64,000 nt of DNA from Octopus sinensis. Its lineage: Eukaryota. Positions 3,728 through 56,149 of the stretch are shown here, piece by piece; position 1 is the first letter of the stretch, and each line of letters starts with the position of its first letter. The position numbers and the translations under genes are program-made. Where the stretch lies: assembly GCF_006345805.1 (NCBI RefSeq), contig NC_043014.1, positions 31,620,001 to 31,684,000 on the forward strand. Reading direction: 5' to 3'. The notes under the pieces were generated by a model that searched no databases, had not been told where the DNA came from, and saw only the letters and a list, made by a program, of their open reading frames with translations.

Positions 3728-4945
3728 ATGTATACATACATACAATATATATATTGTTTGTATGTATGTATACATACATCCATCCATCAAGTTCGGTGTA
3801 ACATTTACGGAGAAATATGTACAATATTTGAACTGAACGATCAAAGTATATTCAGTGAAAAAGGAAAGCATAGAAATCCCCAAAGGCAAAAAAAAAAAGT
3901 AAGGAGTATATTTAAAATTAATAAATAATGTTTGTCTGAAAATCGTGAAATTGTAATCGGACAAATTACTTAACATGAGAGTTATTTCACTGACACGAGA
4001 GGTAAAAACACGGCTAAATAAAGAAGAACAACGGTGGTATTATGGAATTATTATTTCCGTGAACATAGCTGGTGAAATCTGTAAAGCAGTTCAGTTTAAT
4101 AGCTGTTAAAAACTTACCTAAAACAACCGTCAAAACAGTTAGGGTTGCATTCGTTTACACGTGGGAGTAATCCGGACATGCACAAACACTATCTACTTCC
4201 GCTTTCAAGAACATCATGCAGATAATGCCGGCTCGGCTACATGCGGTAGCAAAATTAAGAGCTGTAATTCGAAATTATTTTTAATTGTAAGCATTTTAAT
4301 TACAATTTTGTTAAATGTTTAAATAATACTATCTTTGTGTTTATCAACCCCCACCATAAATCTAAATGTTAAAGCAGTAGTTCGCTAGAGGATCACACCG
4401 GAAGTTTATACCATATGATTTCTATGCGATGTTTTCTTTCTGCACGTGAAATATCATCGTAAATTAAAAGTTTAAGTTAGTGACGAACAGAGTCTATGAT
4501 TCTAGTAGAAGCTATTCCGCCTCAACTATGTCACTTTCTGACCTGAAAAACAATGGGGGAGCATGTAATCACACCATCTACTACTGTTATAAATCTACGT
4601 CCGATATTCAAAACAAACATTACATAACTGCATTTCTCATTGTGCGGCTGTGACAATCGATAAATAACTTGCTTTTTTAAGTTCTTGACACTGGATTGTG
4701 GCTATGCTGGGGTACTGCTCTGAAGGGTTTTAGTCGAACAAATCGACACCAGTACTTATTAAATAAGTACTTAAGTACTATTATTAATATTCTTTATGGT
4801 GTATAAATGAGACTATAAGGCTGCTTGACTCAGTGTTATTGTTATTGTAAATTGACTTTTGTTGATTTTATTTTGTATGAAACTATTATAAATATTCTTT
4901 GCTATATTATTGGAATATAACACGTGTGTATATGATTATATATAT

Positions 4946-5194: not shown

Positions 5195-6380
5195 ACTACA
5201 TTGAGAATATAAATCCAAAACCGGATGGAGTGCTGGAAGAAAGAAAGAAATACATCAAATCAAAAGCAAGTGCCTCAACTGGGTTACACACCACCAGGTC
5301 CAACGGAAGCTATTGAAGCAATCCAACACATTCGCGACATTACCACAGGTGATGGCGAGGTTAAGGCGTTGTTGGAACAGCCAAACTCCCTCACAGGCAT
5401 CACTTGGCACCTTGGTAAGGTGAGCCGCTAATGATGACAAGAACATCGCCGTTAGCGTCCCTGTTCCTTCAAACGTCTCAAACGCCACAGGCTGGAAGAA
5501 ATAGTTCACTGACAGGTTCCGATACTTAAGGATTTTGTTCTGTTCAGCTACGGAAGCAGTGACCCTCCCATTTACCACAGCCTACAGGATGTGGGAGGGT
5601 GCAAAGGAGACAGAAACTGTAGCATCCCAGATGAGGCATTTACTTCTTACCCAGAGACAAAGGGTAAGACCATCTGGCATCTTCACATCACTTCTGGATA
5701 ATCCTGCCGGTCCCAGAACTGAGGAAATACTAATCTGAGCCAGGGCCCACTTAATGATTAAGTTTAGCTTGGTGTGACAAGCGAAACGACCAACATTTAA
5801 GTGGCAAGAGAGACTGTGGAGTCAAGGGGCCTACCATGGTGACATCTCAGTTTCCCATAGATGTCAGTTCCCACTTTGAGGACAATGGAGATGCGAAACT
5901 CATCTAGACCGAGTACACCACCAATGTTGGCCACAGGCAGGGCATCAATCCAGTCCTTGAAAATTTTGCACTAGCAGAATGTAGGTGGCACCTTGTAAGT
6001 TGATCAATGAGAGTGTTAAAAGTGACACTTGAATTCCAACTGTTCTATAATCTCTGCTTCTGTCTATCCTCAACTATAGCAGAAATTGACAAACCCAGCT
6101 CTCTCGACTGTAACAGAGATTCATCCATCTCCCTATTGGAACTAGTTCATGTTGGAGAGGAGAGGATGTTGCCTACCAAAGGGGAGCAAGCATGGACAGA
6201 AAAAAGAAAACAAGGGATAGAGATGAACACTTATGCGAACCTAGACTCCCAAACTGTTTGGGCAAAGCAGCCTGGTCACAGGCCGCTGGAAAGAGTTTAA
6301 TATTGACCAAGCATTTGACTTTTCTGAAGATTAGGTCGTCCAAGCATTGGAGAGACAATGAGAATCTAATACAATAATTT
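5195..6380 (-). mobile_element. CRE-clade non-LTR retrotransposon, 3' fragment (zinc knuckle + restriction-like endonuclease), decayed
   Basis: Minus-strand translation gives DWIDALP..., LSC...GRFACHTKLNLII, PDGLT, CLIWDAT and AEQNKILKYRNL...FQPVAFETF...QRLNLAITCGNVANVL, which match CRE-type C-terminal motifs. Several stops and frameshifts. Confidence 0.8.
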
Positions 6381-9090: not shown

Positions 9091-10533
9091 TCGACCCAGC
9101 TGAGGAAAGTTGCTCATTTGACAAAATTTCCTGCCCAAAAGCTATATTCATAAAAAAGTAATTGATGGGGTTAGCAATTGCAGAATAGACATCTGACAGT
9201 GATGCACCAAATAAAATACTAAAAATTTTACAGAACTTGGTTTCGTTTTTATAAAGTTATGTGCTCAAATCCCATTAAATTTGACCAAACTTTTATCCTG
9301 TTTTTTAATACATACTGTGTATGATAAATTCAAAGTACTTAAACTACAGTTTTAAAGCTTTCATTGAGGAACTTTCAACAGATGTGAATATATCATCTAT
9401 TCTCTTCATACACAGAAGAATAAAGGAGGTTGTCTATTGTCCTAACATGTCATGGTTTTTTACCATTGACCAAGACAAGAACCTCATTCCTCTACCCACA
9501 CACACAAAAAAAACCATTATAATAATTAGTTTTTGTAAATCTATCACAAACTATATTTACACACACACACTTAGTGGGGGAAGGATATGGGGAAGAGGTA
9601 TATTAGGGACAGTGTAATGTCATACCCATATGGTTTTCATTTTACTTAGCTGAACAGGTCTACTCAAGCAAAGCAAACCACCATTTGTCATGGTCCTTTG
9701 TCATCTCCTCTTGTGAGGTTCAGCATCTAAAGATCATTTTCCATAATTTTGTCCTACATCTTCCTGGGTCTTCCTCTTCCACTATAGTCCTCTATCTTTC
9801 ACAATATGTCCCTGTTGAGTCTCTTCCCCACAACATATCCTCCTGCTACCCCCTCTTACTACATTCCCCACCTCCATCTCCCACTCCCTTTTTGCAAACT
9901 CACAAAATTACTCACCCACTCACCCTCTCCGACCCTGGGTCCACTTCACTGCATACACCTCCCTATAATTTGGATGTAAATACCATCACATCTTATCTCC
10001 TCTTTCTCTCTCTCTCCTCCTCTCCATCTCCTTCTCTCCACTTCAGGTAAACAGGTTTCTCCTCTACTGCAAGATACCTAGTTCTGTCCCTCTATACTAC
10101 TCCTCACCCCCAGTTGAAGGAGTCTTGTCTTGCAGGTTACTGGGTGACCTCACTGCTGCTGGTTCCACATAAAAAGCACTGAATATACTCTGTAAAATGG
10201 TTGACAGCATTGTGAAAGGCATTCAGCAGTAGAAAACATGTCAAAGCAGACAGTAGAACTTGGTGCAGTCTTCAGCCAGCTCCTGTTGAACCTTCCAACC
10301 CATGCCAGCATGGAAAATGTACACTAAATTATGATGACAATTATATTGAAGATGATCACACACATTTTTCAGCTACTAATTAGGAGTGAAATTAAGCAAT
10401 TTGAATAAATGTTTCATTAGTAAATTAAATCTGATAATTTTATTATTCACATCCTGGCCTTTGTTTCATTATTAACATCTTTGACTCTTTGGTTTCTATC
10501 ATGCAGAAATGCTTCAATCTGATAAAGCTTCTT

Positions 10534-10938
10534 ATTTCTTTACTGCCCACAAGGGGTTACACATAGAGGGGACAAACAAACGGATTAAGTCGATTATATC
10601 AACCCCAGTGCATAACTGGTACTTATTTAATCGACCCCGATTGGATGAAAGGCAAAGTCAACCTCGGCAGAATTTGAACTCAGAACGTAGCGGCAGACAA
10701 AATACCTATTTCTTTATTACCCACATGGGGCTAAACACAAACAAGGACAGACAAACGGATTAAGTCGATTATATCGACCCCAGTGCATAACTGGTACTTA
10801 TTTAATCGACCCCGAAAGGATGAAAGGCAAAGTCGACCTTGGCAGAATTTGAACTCAGAACGTAGCGACAGACGAAATACCACTAAGCATTTTACCCGAC
10901 ATGCTAACGCTTCTGCCAGCTTGCCGCCTTTAAAGCTA
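10534..10938 (-). mobile_element. tRNA-derived SINE family B, dimer (head + 2 bodies)
   Basis: 15-bp TSD ctgataaagcttctt at 10519-10533 and 10939-10953. One head (ggcggcaagctggcag). Internal junction aaatacc|tatttc at ~10705. Confidence 0.9.
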
Positions 10939-11321
10939 CTGATAAAGCTTCTTGGCAGATCACATTACCTGTTTCATTATTTGGAACCATCATAATTAAT
11001 ATATATGAGCACATAAATATAAACAAACTAACATTTATTTTTATAAGCTTCAAAATGTGTATTGAATGATACAAATTAGATGATATTTTTTCAAACACAG
11101 AATTGCCATTAGAACAGCAGAAATACTGTGTAAATTACCCTTACAAAGCAGAAAAATTTGTCACTTACCAGCCATGAGTGCATTTATATAATTTGCTGGA
11201 TATGGTTACCAAGGTCTTTCAACATTAAATGGTGTGACTGCAGGACATGTTTTGTGTAACTTTGTTATCTTGTTATCCAGAAACTGTTCTAGCATTAAGT
11301 TGATATTGCAGCTATATGCTC

Positions 11322-11920
11322 ATATTTCTTTATTGCCCACAAGGGGCTACACACAGAGGAGAAAAACAAGGACAGACAAACGGATTAAGTCGATTACATC
11401 GACCCCAGTGCATAGCTGGTACTTAATTTATCGACCCCGAAAGGATGAAAGGCAAAGTCGACCTCGGTGGAATTTGAACTCAGAATGTAGTGACAGACAA
11501 AATACCTATTTCTTTACTACCCACAAGGGGCTACACACAGAGGGGACAAACAAGGACAGACAAATGGATTAAGTCAATTATATCAACTCCAGTGCATAAC
11601 TGGTACTTATTTAATTGACCCTGAAAGGATGAAAGGCAAAGTCGACCTCGGTGGAATTTGAACTCAGAATATAGTGAAAGACGAAATATTTATTTCCTTA
11701 CTACCCACAAGGGGCTAAACACAGGAGGGACAAACAAGGACAGACAAATGGATTAAGTCAATTATATCGACCCCAGTGCATAACTGGTACTTATTTAATT
11801 GACACCGAAAGGATGAAAGGCAAAGTCGACCTCGGCAGAATTTGAACTCAGAACATAACGGCAGACAAAATACCGCTAAGCATTTCACCTGGTGTGCTAA
11901 CATTTCTGCCAGCTCGCAGC
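11322..11920 (-). mobile_element. tRNA-derived SINE family B, trimer (head + 3 bodies of ~184 bp)
   Basis: 16-bp TSD ttgcagctatatg(c/t)tc at 11306-11321 and 11921-11936. Junctions at ~11505 and ~11690. Confidence 0.9.
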
Positions 11921-17682: not shown

Positions 17683-18403
17683 CAGTGATTCTCAACCAGG
17701 GTCCATATAAGATTTTATTGCTAAAGTTTATGTGCAATAAATTGTGAGTAAGGCGGTAAGCTTGCAGAAAGGTTAGCACAGTGGGAGAAATGCTTAGTGG
17801 TATTTCGTCTTTCTTTACGTTCTGAGTTCAAAATCTGCTGAAGTAGACTTTACCTTTCAACCTTTTGGGGTTGATAAATTAAATACCTATTTCTTTACTA
17901 CCCACAAGGGGACACACAGAGAGGACAGACAAATGGATTAAGTCGATTATATCGACCCCAGTGCGTAACTGGTACTTATTTTATCGACCCCAAAAGGATG
18001 AAAGGCAAAGTCGACCTCGGCGGAATTTGAACTCAGAACGTAGCGGCAGATGAAATACTGCTAAGCATTTCACCCGGTCTGCTAACAATTCTGCCAGCTC
18101 GCCACCCTTGATAAATTAAATACCAGTTGTGTATTAAGGTCGATCTAATCGACTGGCCTGTTCTCCCAAAATTTCAGGCTATGTGCCCAGAGTAGAAAAG
18201 AATAAATTGGTTATTCTTCAACAGAATATTTTAACAATTCTTTTATGTGCAATTCCTAATATTATAAAAATTTATGCATTTCCTAATAATTATAAAAATT
18301 CAGTAGGATTTTTTTTTATATACATTGAATAGCTATGGTGGTCCAGAGGAGTAAAATAGGAATCAAAGGAGTCCATAGGAAAAAGAATGGGTGAGAACCA
18401 CTG
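17683..18403. mobile_element. hAT (Charlie-like) MITE containing two nested SINEs
   Basis: TIRs cagtgattctcaacc / ggtgagaaccactg. Inner SINE (+) at ~17750-18200 with TSD aataaattg. Innermost SINE B (-) at 17888-18107 with 17-bp TSD ttgataaattaaatacc. Confidence 0.8.
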
Positions 18404-21892: not shown

Positions 21893-22619
21893 AATTTTCC
21901 ATAAGAAACATGTTTGGCCATGGGGAAATATTATCTTCCTTGGAAGCAGGTGTTGGTTGGTGACAGGAAAGGCATTCAGTCATAAAAAAATCTACCTCAA
22001 CAAATTCTGTGTAATCCATGCAAGTATGGATAAGTGAATGTTAAATGATGATGATGATGATGATGACAATGCAATGATGATGATGATATATATATCTTAA
22101 CACTGGCTACCTTGTGTAAGGAAAAGTTCCTTTCAAAGAAAAACTATTATGTGTCACATCTATTATTTATAACATTACTCTGTTTGTCATGACATGCATG
22201 GGTGTTATACCCTTAACAAACTTATCTATGGAATGAATTTGAAGATGTTATCAAAATCTTTAACATTATGAAATAATATAGTAAAGATCTATAAATATAT
22301 GATTCAAAATCAAAATAAGAACATTTACAAAACAAGGAATTACCATAGGTACCACCAGTTATTATTATTGGTTTCAAATTTTGGCTCAAATTCAGCAATT
22401 CCAAGAGAGAGTGCAAGCCGACTAAATTGATCCCTAGTCCTCAATTCATACTTATTTTATCAATTCCAAAAGGATGAAAGGCAAAGTCGACAATGGCAGA
22501 ATTTGAACTCAGAATATAAAGATGGAGGAAATGCTGCTAAGCATTTTTGCCTGGCATGCTGATGTTTCTGCCAGCTCACTGCCTTGATGATGATGATGAT
22601 GATGATGATAATAATAATG

Positions 22620-22660
<41 letters not shown>

Positions 22661-22663
<3 letters not shown>

Positions 22664-22980
22664 TATGTACATTATTTACATTCGACGGATAGTTGTCCTC
22701 ATCTTCTTTGTTGTTAACACAACGTTTTGGCTGATATACCCTCTAGCCTTCCTCAGATGTCTTGGGGAAATTTCCTTAGGAATTAGAAAATTACCTTAAT
22801 TAGGAAATTACCTTAGGAATGAGAACCCAGTTTCAAAATTTCCCCAAGACACCTGAAGAAGGCTGGAGGGTATATCAGCCGAAACATTGTGTTAATAACA
22901 AACAAGTTGAGGACAAATATCTGTCAAATGTAAATAATGTAAATAATGTACATAATTCCTCATCTCTTAAATATAAAAAC
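22661..22980 (+). mobile_element. Penelope-like element remnant: inverted pLTR arms each containing a hammerhead
   Basis: Arms 22661-22772 and 22837-22957 plus 3' extension, inserted at an (AAT)n tract. Same family at 40276-40434. Confidence 0.8.
22848..22893 (+). ncRNA. Minimal type I hammerhead ribozyme (second copy on minus strand, 22716-22761)
   Basis: gacac-CUGAAGA-a-GGCUG-gaggguauau-CAGCC-GAAA-C(A/G)-U-U-guguu. Stems I and II pair, and the stem III consensus ACGU is palindromic. Confidence 0.8.
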
Positions 22981-23742
22981 TATAATAATTATGGTTTCAA
23001 ATTTTGGCACAAGGCCTGTAGTTTCAGGGTAGAGGGCAACTCAATTACATTGACTCCAGTGTTTAGCTGTACTTATTTTATTAATTCTGAAAGAATGAAA
23101 GGCAAAGTCGACCTTGATGGAATTTGAACTCAGAACATAAAGACAGATGAAATGCTGCTAAGCATTTAGCCCAGTGTATCAATGATTCTGTCAGCTCACT
23201 GCCTTACCAATTATTATTATTACTACTGTTGCTAAGGCAGCAAGCTGGTAGAATTCTTAGAGCATTGGAAATAAACGTTTTGATGTTTCACTGAATTTCT
23301 TCTTATATGCTACATTTTTTTGAGTTCAAATTCTGTTGAGTCAGTTTTTACCTTTCATTCTTCTGAAGCTGATAAAATATGTACCAACTGAGCACTGGGG
23401 GTCAATGTAGCTGTCTTACACCCATACCCAAAAATAGCTGGCATTGCCAAAATTTGAAACCATTATTAGTAATATTGCGGTACTGTAGTCTGAAGCTTTT
23501 GTATTTACTTATACAATATATGATAGTGCACTGTAAAAGCACCCATACAAGTGTCATGCGAGTGCCTATGCTGATGCCACATAAAAGCGCCCAGTACTCT
23601 CTGTACAGTGGTTGGCATTAGGAAGGGCATCCAACTATAGAAACCATGCCAAAATAGACAAATGGAACTTGGTCAGCTGGAAAGCTGACCAACTCCTGTC
23701 AAACAATCCAACATATGCCAACACAGAGAACGGATGTTAAAA

Positions 23743-38497: not shown

Positions 38498-38730
38498 CCT
38501 ATTTCTTTATTACCCATAAGGGGCTAAACACAGAGGGGACAAACAAGGACAGACATAGGTATTAAGTCGATTACATCGACCCCAGTGCGTAACTGGTACT
38601 TAATTTATCGACCTCGAAAGGATGAAAGGCAAAGTCGACCTCGGCGGAATTTGAACTCACAACGTAACGCAGACGAAATACCGCTAAGCATTTCGCCCGG
38701 CGCGCTAACGATTCTGCCAGCTCGCCGCCT
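38498..38730 (-). mobile_element. SINE family B monomer, young
   Basis: TSD ttacataata (38488-38497, 38731-38740). Intact CpG-rich head ggcggcgagctggcagaatcg and B box gagttcaaattc. Confidence 0.92.
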
Positions 38731-41724: not shown

Positions 41725-43235
41725 ACTTAGATAACTTAGATAACTTAGATATGTTTCAACCAAAGATTGGTCCAGGCCATGTCTAACTTAATAGCACCAC
41801 CTGATAGGATTATTCGAATCCTGTTTAAGTCAAGTTTTGTTCAAGTAGTGAGTTCTTGTTGGGTGAGTTGTATCAAGTTTTGTTCAAGTAGTGAGTTCTT
41901 GTTGGGTGAGTTGTATCGAATTATGGGTGGCTTATCTGGTATTCTTTGAAGGAATCTATCCAGACTCCGTTTAAAGTTGATGGGATCCTTTTCCTCTTTG
42001 ATCTCCCTCGGGACAATGTTAAATAGGGCAGGGCCTGTTGAGGAAAAGAAATTATGTTGCAGTGTACATGTATGCTGTGATCTTGAATTGGGCAGGGGAC
42101 GTATGGCCCGTGGTCCCAGTCTTGGATGAACCTTGAAGCTAATGTTAAGGTCGTTAGGGCAAAGTTGGCGATATATTCTCCACATCGTACAAATGATGTA
42201 CCGCTCACGGCGACGCTGGAGGGAGTAAAGTTTCAAGGCTTTAAGGCGATCCCAATAATCGATAGCAGCCATGCCTTCAATTCTTTTAGTGAGTGTCCTC
42301 TGGGGTGACTCAATTCTGGAGATATTTTGTCTTCTATGGGGAGACCACAGTGAGCAGCAGTATTCAAGGTGTGGCCGTACAAAGGAGGAGAAAAGTGGTA
42401 TGATGACACCTTGTTCTCTGGACCGGAAAGTTCTTACGATCGAGGAACTCATCCTACGAGCTCTATCGACCTTCTTGTTGATGTGTGCACTCCAACTGAG
42501 GTCGTCATCAACAATTACACCCAGGTCTCTGATATTGTTAGAGACTGTGAGCGGTTCCCCTGAAGGAAGAGAGTATGGCTGTTTTACTGAGGAATTTCTT
42601 CCAAAATGCATCAGCTCAAATTTTCCCTCATTCAGTTGCATTTTGTTTCTGTCTGCCCATTGACTCACAGCATATAGATCAGACTGGAGTTGAGTTCGGT
42701 CTGCTTCTTCATTGACGATTTGCTGGAGCTTAGTGTCATCAGCAAATATTTTCACTTTGCAGTAATGTACAACACTGGAAAGGTCGTTTATGTAAATTAT
42801 GAAAAGTAGCAGACCCAAAACAGTCCCCTGGGGAACACCGCTGGTGACTTTTGCTGGGCTTGAGTGGACTCCATCAACTACAACATGTTGTGTTCTATTC
42901 ACCAGGAAATACTTAATCCAGTGTAGAACTTTTCCACGGATTCCAACATTTGCCAATTTTGAGAGTAGGATATTATGGTCTACCCTGTCGAACGCTTTAC
43001 TGAAGTCAAGATATATGACGTCAGAGTTTGAACCTGTTCCGAAGGCTTTGAGTACATCTTCAATGTGGTGTAAGAGCTGTGTTAGACAGTCCCTGCCACA
43101 GCGAAAGCCATGCTGATTTGCATTTAGGAGTTTGTGGGTCTCCAGGAAGTCAGCTATCCTTGATCTTAACACTCTTTCAAACACTTTAATGATGTGGGAG
43201 GTGAGATTGGGTGATAGTTGACTGCGAGGGATCTG
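41725..43235 (-). mobile_element. CR1-like LINE, 5'-truncated, with (ATCTAAGTT)n tail
   Basis: RT ORF, short 3' UTR and a tandem 9-mer tail at 41725-41752. Confidence 0.9.
41841..43184 (-). CDS. Reverse transcriptase domain of the CR1-like LINE ORF2 (5'-truncated, 447 aa open)
   Basis: QHGFR, YLDFSKAFDRVDH, SGVPQGTVLG, FADDTK, DLGV, VRPHLEYC..WSP, LYSLQRRRER. Confidence 0.92.
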   Translation of the reverse strand: MFERVLRSRIADFLETHKLLNANQHGFRCGRDCLTQLLHHIEDVLKAFGTGSNSDVIYLDFSKAFDRVDHNILLSKLANVGIRGKVLHWIKYFLVNRTQHVVVDGVHSSPAKVTSGVPQGTVLGLLLFIIYINDLSSVVHYCKVKIFADDTKLQQIVNEEADRTQLQSDLYAVSQWADRNKMQLNEGKFELMHFGRNSSVKQPYSLPSGEPLTVSNNIRDLGVIVDDDLSWSAHINKKVDRARRMSSSIVRTFRSREQGVIIPLFSSFVRPHLEYCCSLWSPHRRQNISRIESPQRTLTKRIEGMAAIDYWDRLKALKLYSLQRRRERYIICTMWRIYRQLCPNDLNISFKVHPRLGPRAIRPLPNSRSQHTCTLQHNFFSSTGPALFNIVPREIKEEKDPINFKRSLDRFLQRIPDKPPIIRYNSPNKNSLLEQNLIQLTQQELTT

Positions 43236-44694
43236 TTTCCCTGTTCGCTAAAATAACTAATGTTTGGCAGAAATAGTTAAAAATTGGTGGGTATAGACAG
43301 TCTGAAAGAACAATTAGCAAAACTAGAAGGAAAAGTTGCAGGATAGCACCAGCAACAGGGACAAATTCTAAACCACTGTCGTCTGTGAAATTTTTGCAAA
43401 AGTGGAAATGATATGGTAAGCAACATAATACAAAATTATACTTTGTAAAAAACAACATGAAAATAAGTTATAACAAGCTGTAGTTACATTAAAAAAATAA
43501 AGACAGAAACATTTTAAAAATATTTTTTTAAAAATTGAAACATAATAGAAAAAATCATAAGTTATATTCAAAAAATTAAGGCGATCTTTTGTTTTACAGC
43601 CATATTAGGTAAAATATAAACGAAAATGAAACCAACAATAATGGAGAATGGCATAAAAATAACTTGACAATCCTGAATGACAAAAATGAATAGGTTAATG
43701 TAAAGAAGTAGGGTATTATAAATTTCTTATTTTTTTATAATTTTTCAATGACATCATTTTGTTAACTTATTAAAGTAGCATCGGAAGAAAATAAGACAGT
43801 ATAAATCAAGATAATCAAGTCAGTTTTTGTACATTCCCCATTGCTGTTGGTTTCATTTTATTGTAAGCATTAGCAGTGAAACATGAGTTGTGACTACAGA
43901 TGATGACATTTCTCCTACATGCCACTAAATCAAAATGAACTCTTGATAACAACATATCTTCATTGCAAGAGCCCTCTCTCACCAACAAAACTCTTTCCCT
44001 AAAAATTTTAGGATTTGGGAAAGGGATGAAAAATTTTTTTATATTTTTGCCGAACCATATAGGATACAGCGTGTAGAACACAAATTCACAAAATTTTCTG
44101 AAAATACCAAAAAAAAAACGTCATGACTAATTAAATGGTGGGCCAGATGTTGAAGAAGTATTTTTCTGGGACAGAATAGCTGTCCCACACTTTGTTATTT
44201 TATTGTATTCCACATTCTGAAACACATTCAAGTCGCATTAAAACAAATACAAATCTCTTCACCTTACTCCTTAAGTCGTACCTCTCACAAAATTTTGTTT
44301 TTGTTTTATTTTCATTTATGTAAATTTATAAAAAATTCAAGAGATTTGGCTGTTATTTCTAGCATGTGGAGAGACCTAGGCTTAACTTTATGCACTGGTT
44401 GAAAACCACCTAACAAAAATTCTGAGATAGATACATTCGACTAAAAATTCTTCAAGGTGGTACCCCAGCATTACTGCAGTCTAATGATTTAACAAGTACA
44501 AAGGATAAAAAAAAACAAAAAAAAAAAATTAAATATTCGCCGTGGCTGTGTGGTAAGAAGCTTGTTTCCCAACCACATGGTTCCCGGTTCAGTCCCACTG
44601 TTCGGCACCTTGGACAAGTGTCTTCACCTGTAGTTTTGGTCCGACCAAAGCCTTGAAAGTGGATTGAGAGTAGACGGAAACTGAAAGAAGCCCG

Positions 44695-48713: not shown

Positions 48714-48873
48714 CGGAGATGTACTTGCATAGCAAGTGATTTGATCTGAGATCGTGTGCTGGAACGAAAACAATTTCAGCGTGGAAGGTGTTGTAAACTT
48801 AAATGTTGAAGTGAATTGAACGGCTTTTGTGTGTTTCTTAAATGGCTTACAAACACCTTCCACGCGGCAATTG

Positions 48874-48876
<3 letters not shown>
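48714..48876. mobile_element. Inverted-structure remnant of the Penelope-like family also at 54100-54346
   Basis: ggagatgtacttgcatagcaagtga...gcgtggaaggtgtt followed by an inverted segment of the same family. Confidence 0.7.
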
Positions 48877-51396: not shown

Positions 51397-54281
51397 TAAT
51401 ATTTAGCATTCATGTTTTTTAATATTTAGTATTTAGTACTCATAATGTGGCAAGATGGCAGAATTGTTAGAACACCAAGCAAATTGTTAGTACACCAAAA
51501 TGCTTAGTGACGTTTGTCTGTCTTCACGTTTTGAGTTCAAATTCGGGATTGACTTTTCCTTTCAACCTTTTGGGAATGATTAAATAAGTACCAGTTGAAC
51601 ATTGGGGTTTGTGTAATCAACTTTTCCTCTACCCTAAAATTACTGGCCTTGTGCCAAAACTTGAAACCAATATTTAGCACTCATGTTATTTAAATATCCT
51701 CAAAACCATGCCAAAATTGCAAAATAAAATATTTTCTCAGATTACGAGAAAGGGCCCCCCCACTGGTGCATACAGCAGTTGTATGAATTTTGTGATTAAC
51801 CACCAGTGGTATATGTGGTGATTAACATGTTAAAGTTACTAGGGTATAATTCTGAGTGATGTGATGTTGTAGAGTATCCCATGGACAATACTGTCTTGGG
51901 TCCTTTGATTCATAGGGGTAGTTATCCAGTTTCCATGGCATACAAGGGACCAAGATCACAACATACCTCTGAGTAGGATACCAGTCTATTGCAGGGTTAA
52001 TCTTTTACAGCTAAGTGAGCTAGAGCAACATGAAATGAAATGCTTTGCTCAAGAATAAAATGCATTGCTTGGTCCGGGAATCGAAACCACAGTCTTGCGA
52101 TCATGAGTGCAACACCCTAACGACTAAGCTATGTGCCTTCACTGCAGAATATAAGAAATGTAAATTAAACAGTAAGTGTTCACCCCACCTGGGAGATATT
52201 TCAGTGGATGGATAATGAAGATAAGGTATGTGTCAGATTACTTTCTCTGATCTTGTACAAGTCCTGGAAAGCACCTCAGTCCTTACATGTCAAAAGGTTG
52301 TCAAGTTTATTGTATGTATATCCAGTGAAAGAGAGAAAAGAATTTATGAGAGAAACCAGAATTTCAAAGAAATGGCAGTTTATGGCTACAATCTCAACAT
52401 TGTTAATAAATGGGGGAAAATTAATATAGAGATGAGGATTGAAAGGAATAAAACAAATAAGTGTGTGTGTGTGTGTAAATGTGTGTGAAGGGAAGTTAGA
52501 ATGCTAATGATTCTGCCAGCTTAATGCTTTATACTGGCATTAATAATCCTTTCTTATTATAGGCACAAAGCCTGAAATTTAGTGGGGAGGGTGGTAGGTG
52601 ATTACATTGACCCCAGTGATCAGCTGGTACTCATTTTACCATCCCCAAAAGAATTAAAGGCAAAGTTGACCCCAGCAGAATTTGAGGGAACCCAGCTGTA
52701 GAAACCGTGCCAAAACAGACATAGGGCCTCGGCAGCTCTTCAGCGGGCCAGCTCCTGCAAAAACCATCTAATCTATTCCAGCATGGAAAACAGGCATTAA
52801 ATGATGATGAGGATGATGATGATGATAAATGTAAAAACAGGTGTTAAATGATGATGATGATGATGATGAACATAAAGATAGAGAAAATACCACTAAGCAT
52901 TTTGTCCAGCATGCAAACAATTCTGCCAGCTCACTGCCTTTATGTAAGCACTAATGGTCCTTTCTTCTATAGGCACAAGGCCTGAAATTTTGGGGGAGGG
53001 GGACCAGTTGATTATATTGACCTCAGTGCATAACTGGTACTTATTTTATCGACCCTGAAAGGATGAAATGCAAAGTCGACCTCAGTGGAATTTGAACTCA
53101 AAACGTAAAGATGGATGAAATGCCACTTAGCATTATGCCAGCATGCAAACAGTCCTGCCAGCTCATCACCTTTATGCAGGCATTAATAATAATACAGAAA
53201 AGAACATGCAAATAAAAACTCACACTGCAAAACCCCCACCCCACATGCATATACACACACATACATATGCATACACATACAGAATTTGTACATGATTAAC
53301 TTTACTGATGTTCTTGCATGTATGAAACCTCATTCATTCAATTCCAGTTATTTGACATCCATCATTTCCAGTATGACTTAAAACAAAGCAACACCTAATT
53401 CTTTTGTTATTCACATTTTCTTTTCTTTCTCTGTGCTTATTTCTTCTTTTAACCTACTGGAGAAGGAGCTGATTCTCTAAACATCAAGGACACTTTCATG
53501 TCTCAATCTGACACTCTGAGAAAAGACATATAATAACCAACCCTCTCAGCATTAATCTGGAGATTTAAGGACAAAAACATCACCAACAAATCAAATAGAA
53601 GATCCTTTCTAAGATCAAACATTATATTGATGAACCAAAAAGACGTTCTGTATGCTTGTTTGCAAAACTGTCTCTTTTAAAAGAATATAAAAACCTCAAG
53701 AGACTGTGTGTAAATATTAGGATCAAGTTTTTCTTCATGTCTGCATTTCACAAAAAGATCTTAGTGGTAATTTAAGACACCACTAGACACATCATAGCAC
53801 ATTTCAGTGTTGGTTAATGAAAATTTTCATATCCATAAGACAGTGTGCAGTCAATGATCTCCTCTTGATATCACTGTTTTTTTCTAAATACACAAGCTTA
53901 TTCAAACATTGATTGCTTGAATGCTTTTACTACGCCATCTTGTAATTACTAGCTTGGTAAATGGCAAAATAAATTAATATATTTTAGCCAGTAAACACTA
54001 GATAGCTATTTCACAAGGCTTTTTGTGGTTTTTATTATAATAATATATATTTGTATAAAGTTTAATTTATCACCACTTAAAAGTGGATGTGTTATTTATC
54101 ATGAGAATCTCTCATATGGTTTTGTGGTATATATGAACATTCTTGGAGATGTACTTGCATAGCAAGTGACCTGATCTGAGATCGTGTGCAGGAATGAAAA
54201 CAATTGCAGCATGGAAGGTGTTTATAAGCCATTTAAGAAACACATAAAAACCATTAGATTCACTTCAGCATTTAAATTTAA

Positions 54282-54332
54282 TTTGCCAAAATATTTTCAT
54301 TGCTTTGAGACTGCGACCTGTTCACTGACAAA
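54282..54332 (-). ncRNA. Hammerhead ribozyme variant with G3-C8 core
   Basis: uuuguca-GUGAACA-g-GUCGC-agucucaaa-GCAAU-GAAA-AUAU-U-U-uggcaaa. 7-bp stem I, palindromic stem III, stem II 3' strand explicable by CpG decay of GCGAC. Confidence 0.65.
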
Positions 54333-55401
54333 ATTCCGTGCTGCATCTTGTTTACACCACTAATGGCAGACAATCACTGCCATCTCCACTGCCAGGAATA
54401 CCAGATTATTTGATTTCAGTCTTCTTCAGCTTTGTCAATGGTAGATATAGGACTGCTGGAAATAGCAGTAACTGCCCCACTTGCAATATGCATAGAGTCA
54501 CAGAGCCCAGTCAGTCACTGGTGTCACTAAAAGTCAGTGAGCTTATTAAAAAAATGATTAAAATGGTCAGAACAGTAATCAATACCAAAAGGTAAAATTT
54601 ATCTCTCACTTAAATGGGGTTGTTGTGTTAGAATACAGAATACTGCGTTATTTATTTTGAGAGAATCTCTCATATGGTTTTGTGGTGCATCTACGCACCC
54701 TTCTCTACACTGGTAGTGGGACACAATCACCACCAGGACTACCGGATCATGTGATTTCGACCTTCTTCACCTTGCCAATGGTAGATACCTGACTGCTGGA
54801 AATAGCAGTAACTGAGATTTTCCAATCTTCCATGAAAGCATATCTGGTCGTGGAGAATGTTACCTTACTTGGAAACAAGAGTGGGTTGGCAACAAGAAGA
54901 ACATTGGCTGTAGGAAATCAGTTTCAGCAAATTCCATCCACTCCTTGCAAGCTTGGAAAAATGGATGTTAAATGGTGAAAATGATGATAGCAATATACAT
55001 GTTTGTGAATGTGTATGTATATGCAGCTATTAATAATGCTTTCTGACTTTGGCCCAAGACCAGCAATTTTGTGGGGAGGGTATAAATTGCTTTTTTACAT
55101 CAATTTCAGTGTTCAACTGGTACTTTTTTTTATAGTCTCTGAAAAGAGAAAAGCGAAGTTGTCCTAAGCAGGATTTGAGCTCAGAACATAAGGAGCCAGA
55201 AGAAATGGCACTAAAGATTTTGTTGACTGCACTAACATTTCTGCAAGCTCACCACTTTATGCAGGAATTGATAATAATACTAAGAACATACAAATAAAAT
55301 CTCACAGTGCAAAAAACAAAAACATATGAATACATACCACATCCCCCTTGCCACATATGAATAAATATCCTCACCCTTAACACACAAATACACGACCCTA
55401 T

Positions 55402-55811
55402 TTCTTTATTACCCACAAGGGGCTAAACATAGAAGAGGACAAACAAGACAGACATAGGTATTAAGTCGATTATATCGACCCCAATGCGTAACTGGTACTT
55501 ATTTATCGACCCCGAAAGATGAAAGGCAAAGTCGACCTCGGCGGAATTTGAACTCACAACGTACAGCAGAAAAATACCTATTTCTTTATTACCCACAAGG
55601 GGCTAACACAGAGGGACAAACAAGGACAGACATAGGTATTAAGTCGATTACATCGACCCCAGTGCGTAACTGGTACTTAATTTATCGACCCCGAAAGGAT
55701 GAAAGGCAAAGTCGACCTCAGCGGAATTTGAACTCACAACGTAACAGCAGACGAAATACCGCTAAGCATTTCGCCTGGCGTGCTAACGTTTCTGCCAGCT
55801 CGCTGCCTTCT
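55402..55811 (-). mobile_element. SINE family B dimer
   Basis: 14-bp TSD atacac(g/a)accctat at 55388-55401 and 55812-55825. Junction aaatacc|tatttc at ~55578. Confidence 0.9.
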
Positions 55812-56149
55812 ATACACAACCCTATCCCTTCAACACACACATTTACCTTTACTGTTGCTTTTGCATGTATGAAACTTCATTCCTTCTGGGTCATTTCCAA
55901 TCATTCAACTTCTATCACTTTCAGAGCAACACATAATTCTTTTGTAACTCACACTTTCATTCCTTTCACTACACTTATTATTCCTTCTTCTAACTATCTA
56001 AACTTATTGATGAAGGAGCTTAATCTCTGAACATCAAGGACACTTTCTCATCACAATCTTTCATTGAATGTTAAACTAATAATTACGCTTTACATTCATT
56101 TCATCTTCTCTGTGTAGCCATTTTCATGTTAATATTAAACCCACCACAC

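Follow-up and report, generated by a model that had tools for sequence, protein, structure and literature searches.

In the core of the hammerhead ribozyme, positions 3 and 8 form a pair that exists in the active fold alone; activity is lost when either of them is changed singly, and position 8 acts through its 2'-OH. The pair is C3-G8 in nearly all hammerheads. Full pairwise mutagenesis identified the G:C swap as the sole rescue in the 3-8 region (PMC9901934), and in the protein-assisted hammerhead of a Penelope-like element (PLE) the G:C double mutant gave a partial rescue (PMC11167929; review PMC8495972). An earlier, sequence-only reading of the octopus locus described here had stated that the C3G/G8C double mutant restores activity; a rescue has indeed been published, but it is described as partial (PMC11167929). 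Natural 3-8 covariation is already known as U3-A8 (PMC3088659, PMC4209133). The core variants of Perreault et al. 2011 (PMC3088659) resemble the octopus case in their natural compensatory 3-8 change, and the text of the core-variation section, figures aside, names U3-A8, A6C, insertions and U15.1-A16.1 and does not contain G3-C8. The 'G3-C8' that appears in PMC3884650 is an engineered variant. Our search of full-text literature, with figures and several key hammerhead works outside its scope, returned no report of a natural G3-C8 hammerhead or of an octopus PLE hammerhead.

The minimal hammerheads of PLEs (Cervera and De la Pena 2014, PMC4209133) cleave weakly, as dimers. The octopus motif shares with them the type I architecture, the location in a pseudo-LTR, the extra base at 9/10.1, the G10.1-C11.1 pair, a short palindromic stem III, many dispersed truncated copies and natural 3-8 covariation (U3-A8, in Schistosoma). 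It differs in that its 3-8 pair is G-C and its stem I has 7 bp instead of the usual 4-5, and the searched parts of that paper's text and one supplement yielded no G3-C8 and no octopus row. The anole Poseidon element PAc (PMC11167929) is similar in having a hammerhead near the ORF start, a tail of ORF-start sequence and AT-rich targets. Its engineered C3G/G8C variant has the same core pair, which is a laboratory mutant there and the family state in octopus; the octopus motif, unlike that of PAc, is contained entirely in the leader, with 128 nt from its predicted cut to the ATG. Neptune/Nematis-type EN+ PLEs (PMC8557442) share the order RT then GIY-YIG with two inter-motif cysteines, the CX3CxxC linker, (TA)n flanks, inverted 5'-truncated copies and a tail, although the octopus tail is ~55 nt long against the usual 30-40 and the tree containing the octopus elements holds unnamed homologs only.

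We analysed a 64-kb stretch of octopus DNA (the window). A hammerhead scan with the four Watson-Crick 3-8 cores found one G3-C8 match in it, a hammerhead-shaped motif of 51 nt on the minus strand at 54332-54282 (Table 1). The architecture proposed from the sequence was borne out, every part being found at the coordinates previously given. The motif had also been likened to a hammerhead at 22848 with respect to a 7-bp stem I; a canonical C3-G8 minimal hammerhead does lie there in another PLE-like repeat (22846-22895, plus strand, inside inverted arms at 22617-22992), but its stem I has 5 bp and its stem III is decayed. A further hammerhead-shaped match at 5747-5802 (plus strand) has an A3-U8 core, a 7-bp stem I, a paired stem II and a long unpaired stem III region.

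Table 1 Features of the motif and its host repeat in the window. The cut site is predicted from hammerhead numbering.
Feature	Position	Strand	Remarks
Minimal type I hammerhead motif, G3-C8 core, decayed copy	54282..54332	-	sequence, folding
Stem I, 7 bp, one G-U	54332-54326 / 54288-54282	-	
Core positions 3-9, GUGAACA	54325-54319	-	G3 = 54325, C8 = 54320
Extra G between A9 and G10.1	54318	-	conserved in family
Stem II (5 bp) and loop II	54299..54317	-	strands 54317-54313 / 54303-54299; one G-U, one C-A
GAAA core	54298-54295	-	
AUAU of palindromic stem III (AAUAUU)	54294-54291	-	
UU (U16.1, U17)	54290-54289	-	predicted cut between 54289 and 54288
5'-truncated copy (~204 nt) of PLE 3' end (pseudo-LTR and tail)	54145..54348	-	boundaries common to best 30 genomic matches
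Optional tail with first PLE ORF codons	54145..54199	-	ATG at 54160, 128 nt past predicted cut
Second repeat copy, head-to-head inverted, beside (TA)n, without hammerhead	48714..48876	.	

The copy in the window is damaged. In intact copies the 3' strand of stem II reads GCGAC followed by G (27-28 of 29 copies at each position), and the G-U and C-A of the window copy stand where these copies pair; both changes are of the CpG type, as the sequence-only reading had it. When compared with shuffled sequences, the window copy folded no better (z 0.56), with a predicted preference for a GUGA/UCGC hairpin, whereas the minimum-energy structure of two intact family copies consisted of stems I and II (z -3.40 and -2.52). 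Folding of the entire 201-nt unit gave the same contrast: the intact copy retained both stems and the window copy lost them. Intact copies are predicted to have the three-way junction of a hammerhead, in which stem III is short or formed between molecules, and the window copy is not; with its damaged stem II it is probably catalytically dead.

The core of the window copy is nevertheless that of its family. The repeat is abundant in the 2.72-Gb genome, with 3,574 candidates in a first look and 2,936 matches to an exact pattern of 29 letters taken from downstream. The genome belongs to an octopus, since a protein labelled Octopus vulgaris matches it at up to 99%. When the whole genome was searched with exact patterns of the main subfamily, 1,771 copies had G3/C8, 157 combined G3 with a base other than C at 8, and 120 had a base other than G at 3; the GUGAACA core is therefore present in 1,771 of 2,048 matches, and 277 carry another base at one of the two positions. 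Reversed control patterns had no match genome-wide. We sought a C3-G8 subfamily among the 100 non-G3 matches listed and found C3 in 13 and C3 together with G8 in a single copy, which is decayed elsewhere. Selection of copies on downstream sequence only gave a similar picture: 48 of 60 reach position 3, and 45 of these were scored G3/C8, the three exceptions being A/G, G/T and one deletion row that reads G..C by eye. Motifs linked to an ORF have GUGAACA in 23/23 cases, with both stems and the palindrome intact in 19. Among four public runs, each with its own organism label and examined as contigs, none had a different letter at 4% or more at position 3 or 8; one run contributed only 60 records. 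No starts, ends or splice joints with a bearing on cleavage were seen in these contigs.

The family consensus asked for by the earlier reading hence has G3, C8 and a paired stem II fixed. It lacks the literal CUGANGA, so searches with CUGANGA descriptors would indeed miss it, as had been predicted, while a Watson-Crick 3-8 pair and the other core bases (U4, G5, A6, A9, G12, A13, A14, A15.1, U16.1 and H17) are intact. A chance control gave 138 hits in 924 kb of real DNA, from loci chosen for these repeats, and 3 after block shuffling. No hammerhead occurred among the best 150 of 209 Rfam matches in the window, and an intact family copy had no Rfam match; this miss is uninformative, because a canonical C3-G8 minimal hammerhead used as control was likewise unmatched. 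We regard it as virtually certain that the G3/C8 swap is a real, fixed covariant.

The host repeat has the marks of a PLE. A 722-codon frame (P0001) with RT and GIY-YIG motifs was reached via two inverted repeat copies 8 kb apart; it contains YVDD, PTDKS and VYQIKC..YIG, two cysteines between the GIY-YIG motifs and a C-terminal endonuclease. A frame of 1,042 codons is present in L195. Homologs of P0001 carry PF00078 and PF01541, which we take to be RT and GIY-YIG; a Pfam scan of P0001 itself gave no match. The hammerhead unit follows the stop of the RT/GIY-YIG ORF by 0.78-1.13 kb in 23 of 30 protein-selected loci, in agreement with the Penelope-like host that had been suggested. In a tandem copy (L197) the 3' tail of the repeat runs on into the ORF start, which places the hammerhead in the leader at the distance from cut to ATG given in Table 1. 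The single ORF with RT and C-terminal GIY-YIG endonuclease, the pseudo-LTR with hammerhead, the inverted 5'-truncated copies, the optional tail and the microsatellite targets are those of EN+ PLEs. The CX2-5CxxC linker of Neptune or Nematis is present as CQSNCAVC at residue 593 of P0001, and this CX3CxxC form points to one of these two clades. Other repeats were seen in passing. At L131:3636-7575 the PLE 3' region contains an insertion of ~4 kb, likely a DNA transposon, with short terminal inverted repeats and two 597-nt direct repeats. The window also holds a 468-codon frame (41843-43247, minus strand) that by eye resembles a non-LTR (LINE) reverse transcriptase, and an abundant SINE-like repeat of ~180 nt, partly in tandem (10521-11920, 17874-18124, 38498-38729 and 55397-55825).

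The motif begins ~16 nt inside the ~204-nt repeat. The tail is present in 29/60 copies, and 28/60 end ~55 nt earlier, near 54199. The inverted structure of the host repeat noted earlier at 48714-48876 is real as a head-to-head piece of the same repeat, but the hammerhead is absent from it. Such an inverted upstream piece occurs in 58 of 140 distinct copies, and copies frequently adjoin (TA)n; alternative 3' ends, head-to-head copies and (TA)n neighbours are hallmarks of PLEs (PMC8557442, PMC11167929). At the 5' side, among 60 copies that include some pairs representing the two arms of one insertion, 3 begin at the predicted cut, two of them explicable by stem I microhomology, and 31 begin at least 12 bases upstream of stem I.

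The 5' ends of short copies cluster at an AG/ATG just before the hammerhead (24/60; window 54348-54345, minus strand; L196:6480-6502). Long copies have at this point a branch-point-like CTAAC, a pyrimidine run and YAG, and 21 of 114 short copies have GAG instead. The pile-up could mark a splice acceptor, for which we identified no donor, or else an initiator-type start at which the cap G was copied. Folding also predicts that the short unit's initial five bases pair with the tail end and close the entire unit (L196:6500-6700), and this end-to-end pairing might explain why short copies are so uniform. The GAGATG/CATCTC ends could be read as those of a MITE, a reading that we rejected because in long copies the unit runs into the PLE ORF on both sides.

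A comparison is provided by another PLE family of this genome. It contains the closest named homolog of P0001, with 57% protein identity, and the two families are sisters (SH-aLRT 96) in a tree of 25 proteins built without the frameshifted L245 and 8 other homologs. A homologous motif lies behind the ORF in 25 of 30 sister loci and has C3/G8 in 25/25, which makes the swap a true covariation, as the earlier reading had proposed for the core. Between the families both partners differ in five pairs, namely the 3-8 pair, two pairs of stem I, one of stem II and one of stem III (15.2-16.2), against at most two such pairs in slid alignment controls; these are five events over two lineages and not a statistical sample. 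No intermediate PLE family with an equidistant homolog was found, the 30 loci examined out of 80 matches all belonging to the two known families. A metagenomic relative of 42% identity has a canonical CUGAAGA ~170 nt behind its ORF match. Given this relative and the near-universality of C3-G8, G3-C8 would be the derived state.

The sister motif carries a second fixed core variant, A9 to C, in 25/25 copies (L215:4639-4686 and 24 further loci, L215-L244). Its position 17 is U in 11 copies and C in 14, following the NUH rule, and its stem I is weak and bulged (fold z -0.80). With A9 changed, cleavage by one artificial ribozyme fell by a factor of 20 or more, yet a functional natural ribozyme has such a change (PMC10085705). 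The fixed A9C and the weak stem I suggest lax catalytic constraint in the clade. Elsewhere in the genome we observed minimal hammerheads with U3-A8 (L241:4258-4302 and 4622-4666, L030 and L109), two of them within a retrozyme-like 364-nt tandem repeat, and three of the four Watson-Crick 3-8 pairs are present in this one genome.

Between subfamilies of the G3-C8 family, 1 of 42 stem and core positions is variable, compared with 5 of 9 in loop II (Fisher p 0.0003), where the changes are not independent events; compared with the flanks (18/155), the stems and core are not significantly quieter (p 0.08). The sole non-CpG subfamily variant among the 42 constrained positions lies in stem I and keeps the pair as G-U. 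No fixed change is seen across subfamilies at the 16 core and 10 stem II positions, while loop II and the flanks changed. Loop II differs in length by one base between subfamilies with stem II unchanged, so no reading frame explains the conservation and coding constraint is ruled out. As a matter of arithmetic, 3 of the 702 double substitutions possible among the 13 invariant core bases restore a Watson-Crick 3-8 pair. We also compared predicted energies. A catalytic dimer joined through AAUAUU reached -25.4 kcal/mol, close to the 2 x -12.4 kcal/mol of two monomers without stem III. The lowest-energy dimer predicted was non-catalytic (-30.6 kcal/mol), and help from the element's protein would thus be plausible.

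Taken together, we propose, with a probability of about 0.65, that the motif is a PLE minimal hammerhead with G3-C8 fixed, likely kept by selection, and that it would still cut itself today, slowly, after the UU. Selection for the catalytic fold would have retained the 3-8 pair, and its retention would imply that the catalytic fold was retained as well. Such cleavage would proceed as a dimer or with the element's protein. Transcripts of the pseudo-LTR may sometimes be cut, which would release the RNA of the element or shorten its 5' leader, and most integrated copies may derive from uncut RNA. In the anole element, uncut RNA is likewise the main substrate (PMC11167929).

Relaxed catalysis in the clade is a live rival. 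The swap may be real and once selected, and the motif may since have become a remnant of little or no activity in the pseudo-LTR, the element transposing by uncut RNA and having no need of it. We consider this unlikely, even though most copies start upstream of the hammerhead, the sister has A9C throughout and the contrast between core and flanks reaches only p 0.08. It would also be in line with insertion of the anole PLE in vitro, which catalytic mutants left unaffected (PMC11167929), and with Naiad PLEs, which thrive without canonical hammerheads (PMC8557442). A silent relic does not fit easily with 26 core and stem II positions free of fixed change beside a changing loop II and flanks, nor with young ORF-linked copies, 19 of 23 of which have the two stems and the palindrome still intact.

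It is distinctly improbable that the fold is instead a structural element of the 5' leader, for protein binding, translation control or a switch between GUGA and the 5' strand of stem II, with G3/C8 fixed for that role. Such a role would suit the position of the motif 128 nt before the ORF start, the GUGA/UCGC hairpin favoured by the decayed window copy and the predicted pairing of the unit's two ends; however, intact copies favour the hammerhead stems, and a leader function leaves unexplained both the complementary change at exactly positions 3 and 8 and the mix of 11 U and 14 C that the sister shows, in keeping with the NUH rule, at position 17. A resemblance by chance, or a double mutation confined to a single decayed copy, might be suspected from the shuffle-like folding of the window copy and the missing Rfam hammerhead, but is refuted, and its probability negligible, in view of the 1,771 exact G3/C8 matches against none for the reversed control, the homologous sister motif and the excess of real over block-shuffled hits (138 to 3, at loci chosen for these repeats).

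We also scanned phage sequences. Of 25 distinct G3-C8 matches, 2 had full stems; for mismatched controls the figures were 1 of 17 and 1 weak match in 23, and C3-G8 had more than 127 matches. Phage G3-C8 was not used as support because it is not clearly above these controls. The two candidates, on IMG/VR contigs (L249:61-90 and L252:61-91, both minus strand), have full type I hammerhead stems with a G3-C8 core; another sequence (L475) has full stems with unpaired G3/G8. G3-C8 hammerheads are rare and, judging from these sequences, probably not unique. A broader reading, which we offer tentatively as possible but rather doubtful, is that the clade is a natural experiment in which, because weakened ribozymes are propped up by the element's own protein, one sister could pass through a fitness valley of two steps and arrive at an active G3-C8, and the other could fix A9C. 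On this reading, G3-C8 hammerheads of retroelements and phages would form a larger class that has stayed hidden from CUGANGA descriptors.

What the octopus family offers is a known ribozyme, carried by a retroelement of a known kind, whose core shows a compensated change throughout the family; the sister family is an unusually good control, and the activity of the motif is a prediction. In the literature searched, the G:C orientation of the 3-8 pair is found in print only as an engineered mutant, and the octopus family is likely the natural version of that swap. Genome surveys should permit any Watson-Crick 3-8 pair. The pair exists in no conformation but the catalytic one, and that it is conserved is therefore indirect evidence on whether the weak PLE hammerheads cut in vivo. 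The comparison of G3-C8 with the C3-G8/C9 sisters, which come with near-intact ORFs, makes the idea of a protein-assisted ribozyme directly testable, and, in a high-copy element that is still living and has a sister for comparison, the 3-8 pair of the active fold would gain phylogenetic proof in the G:C orientation.
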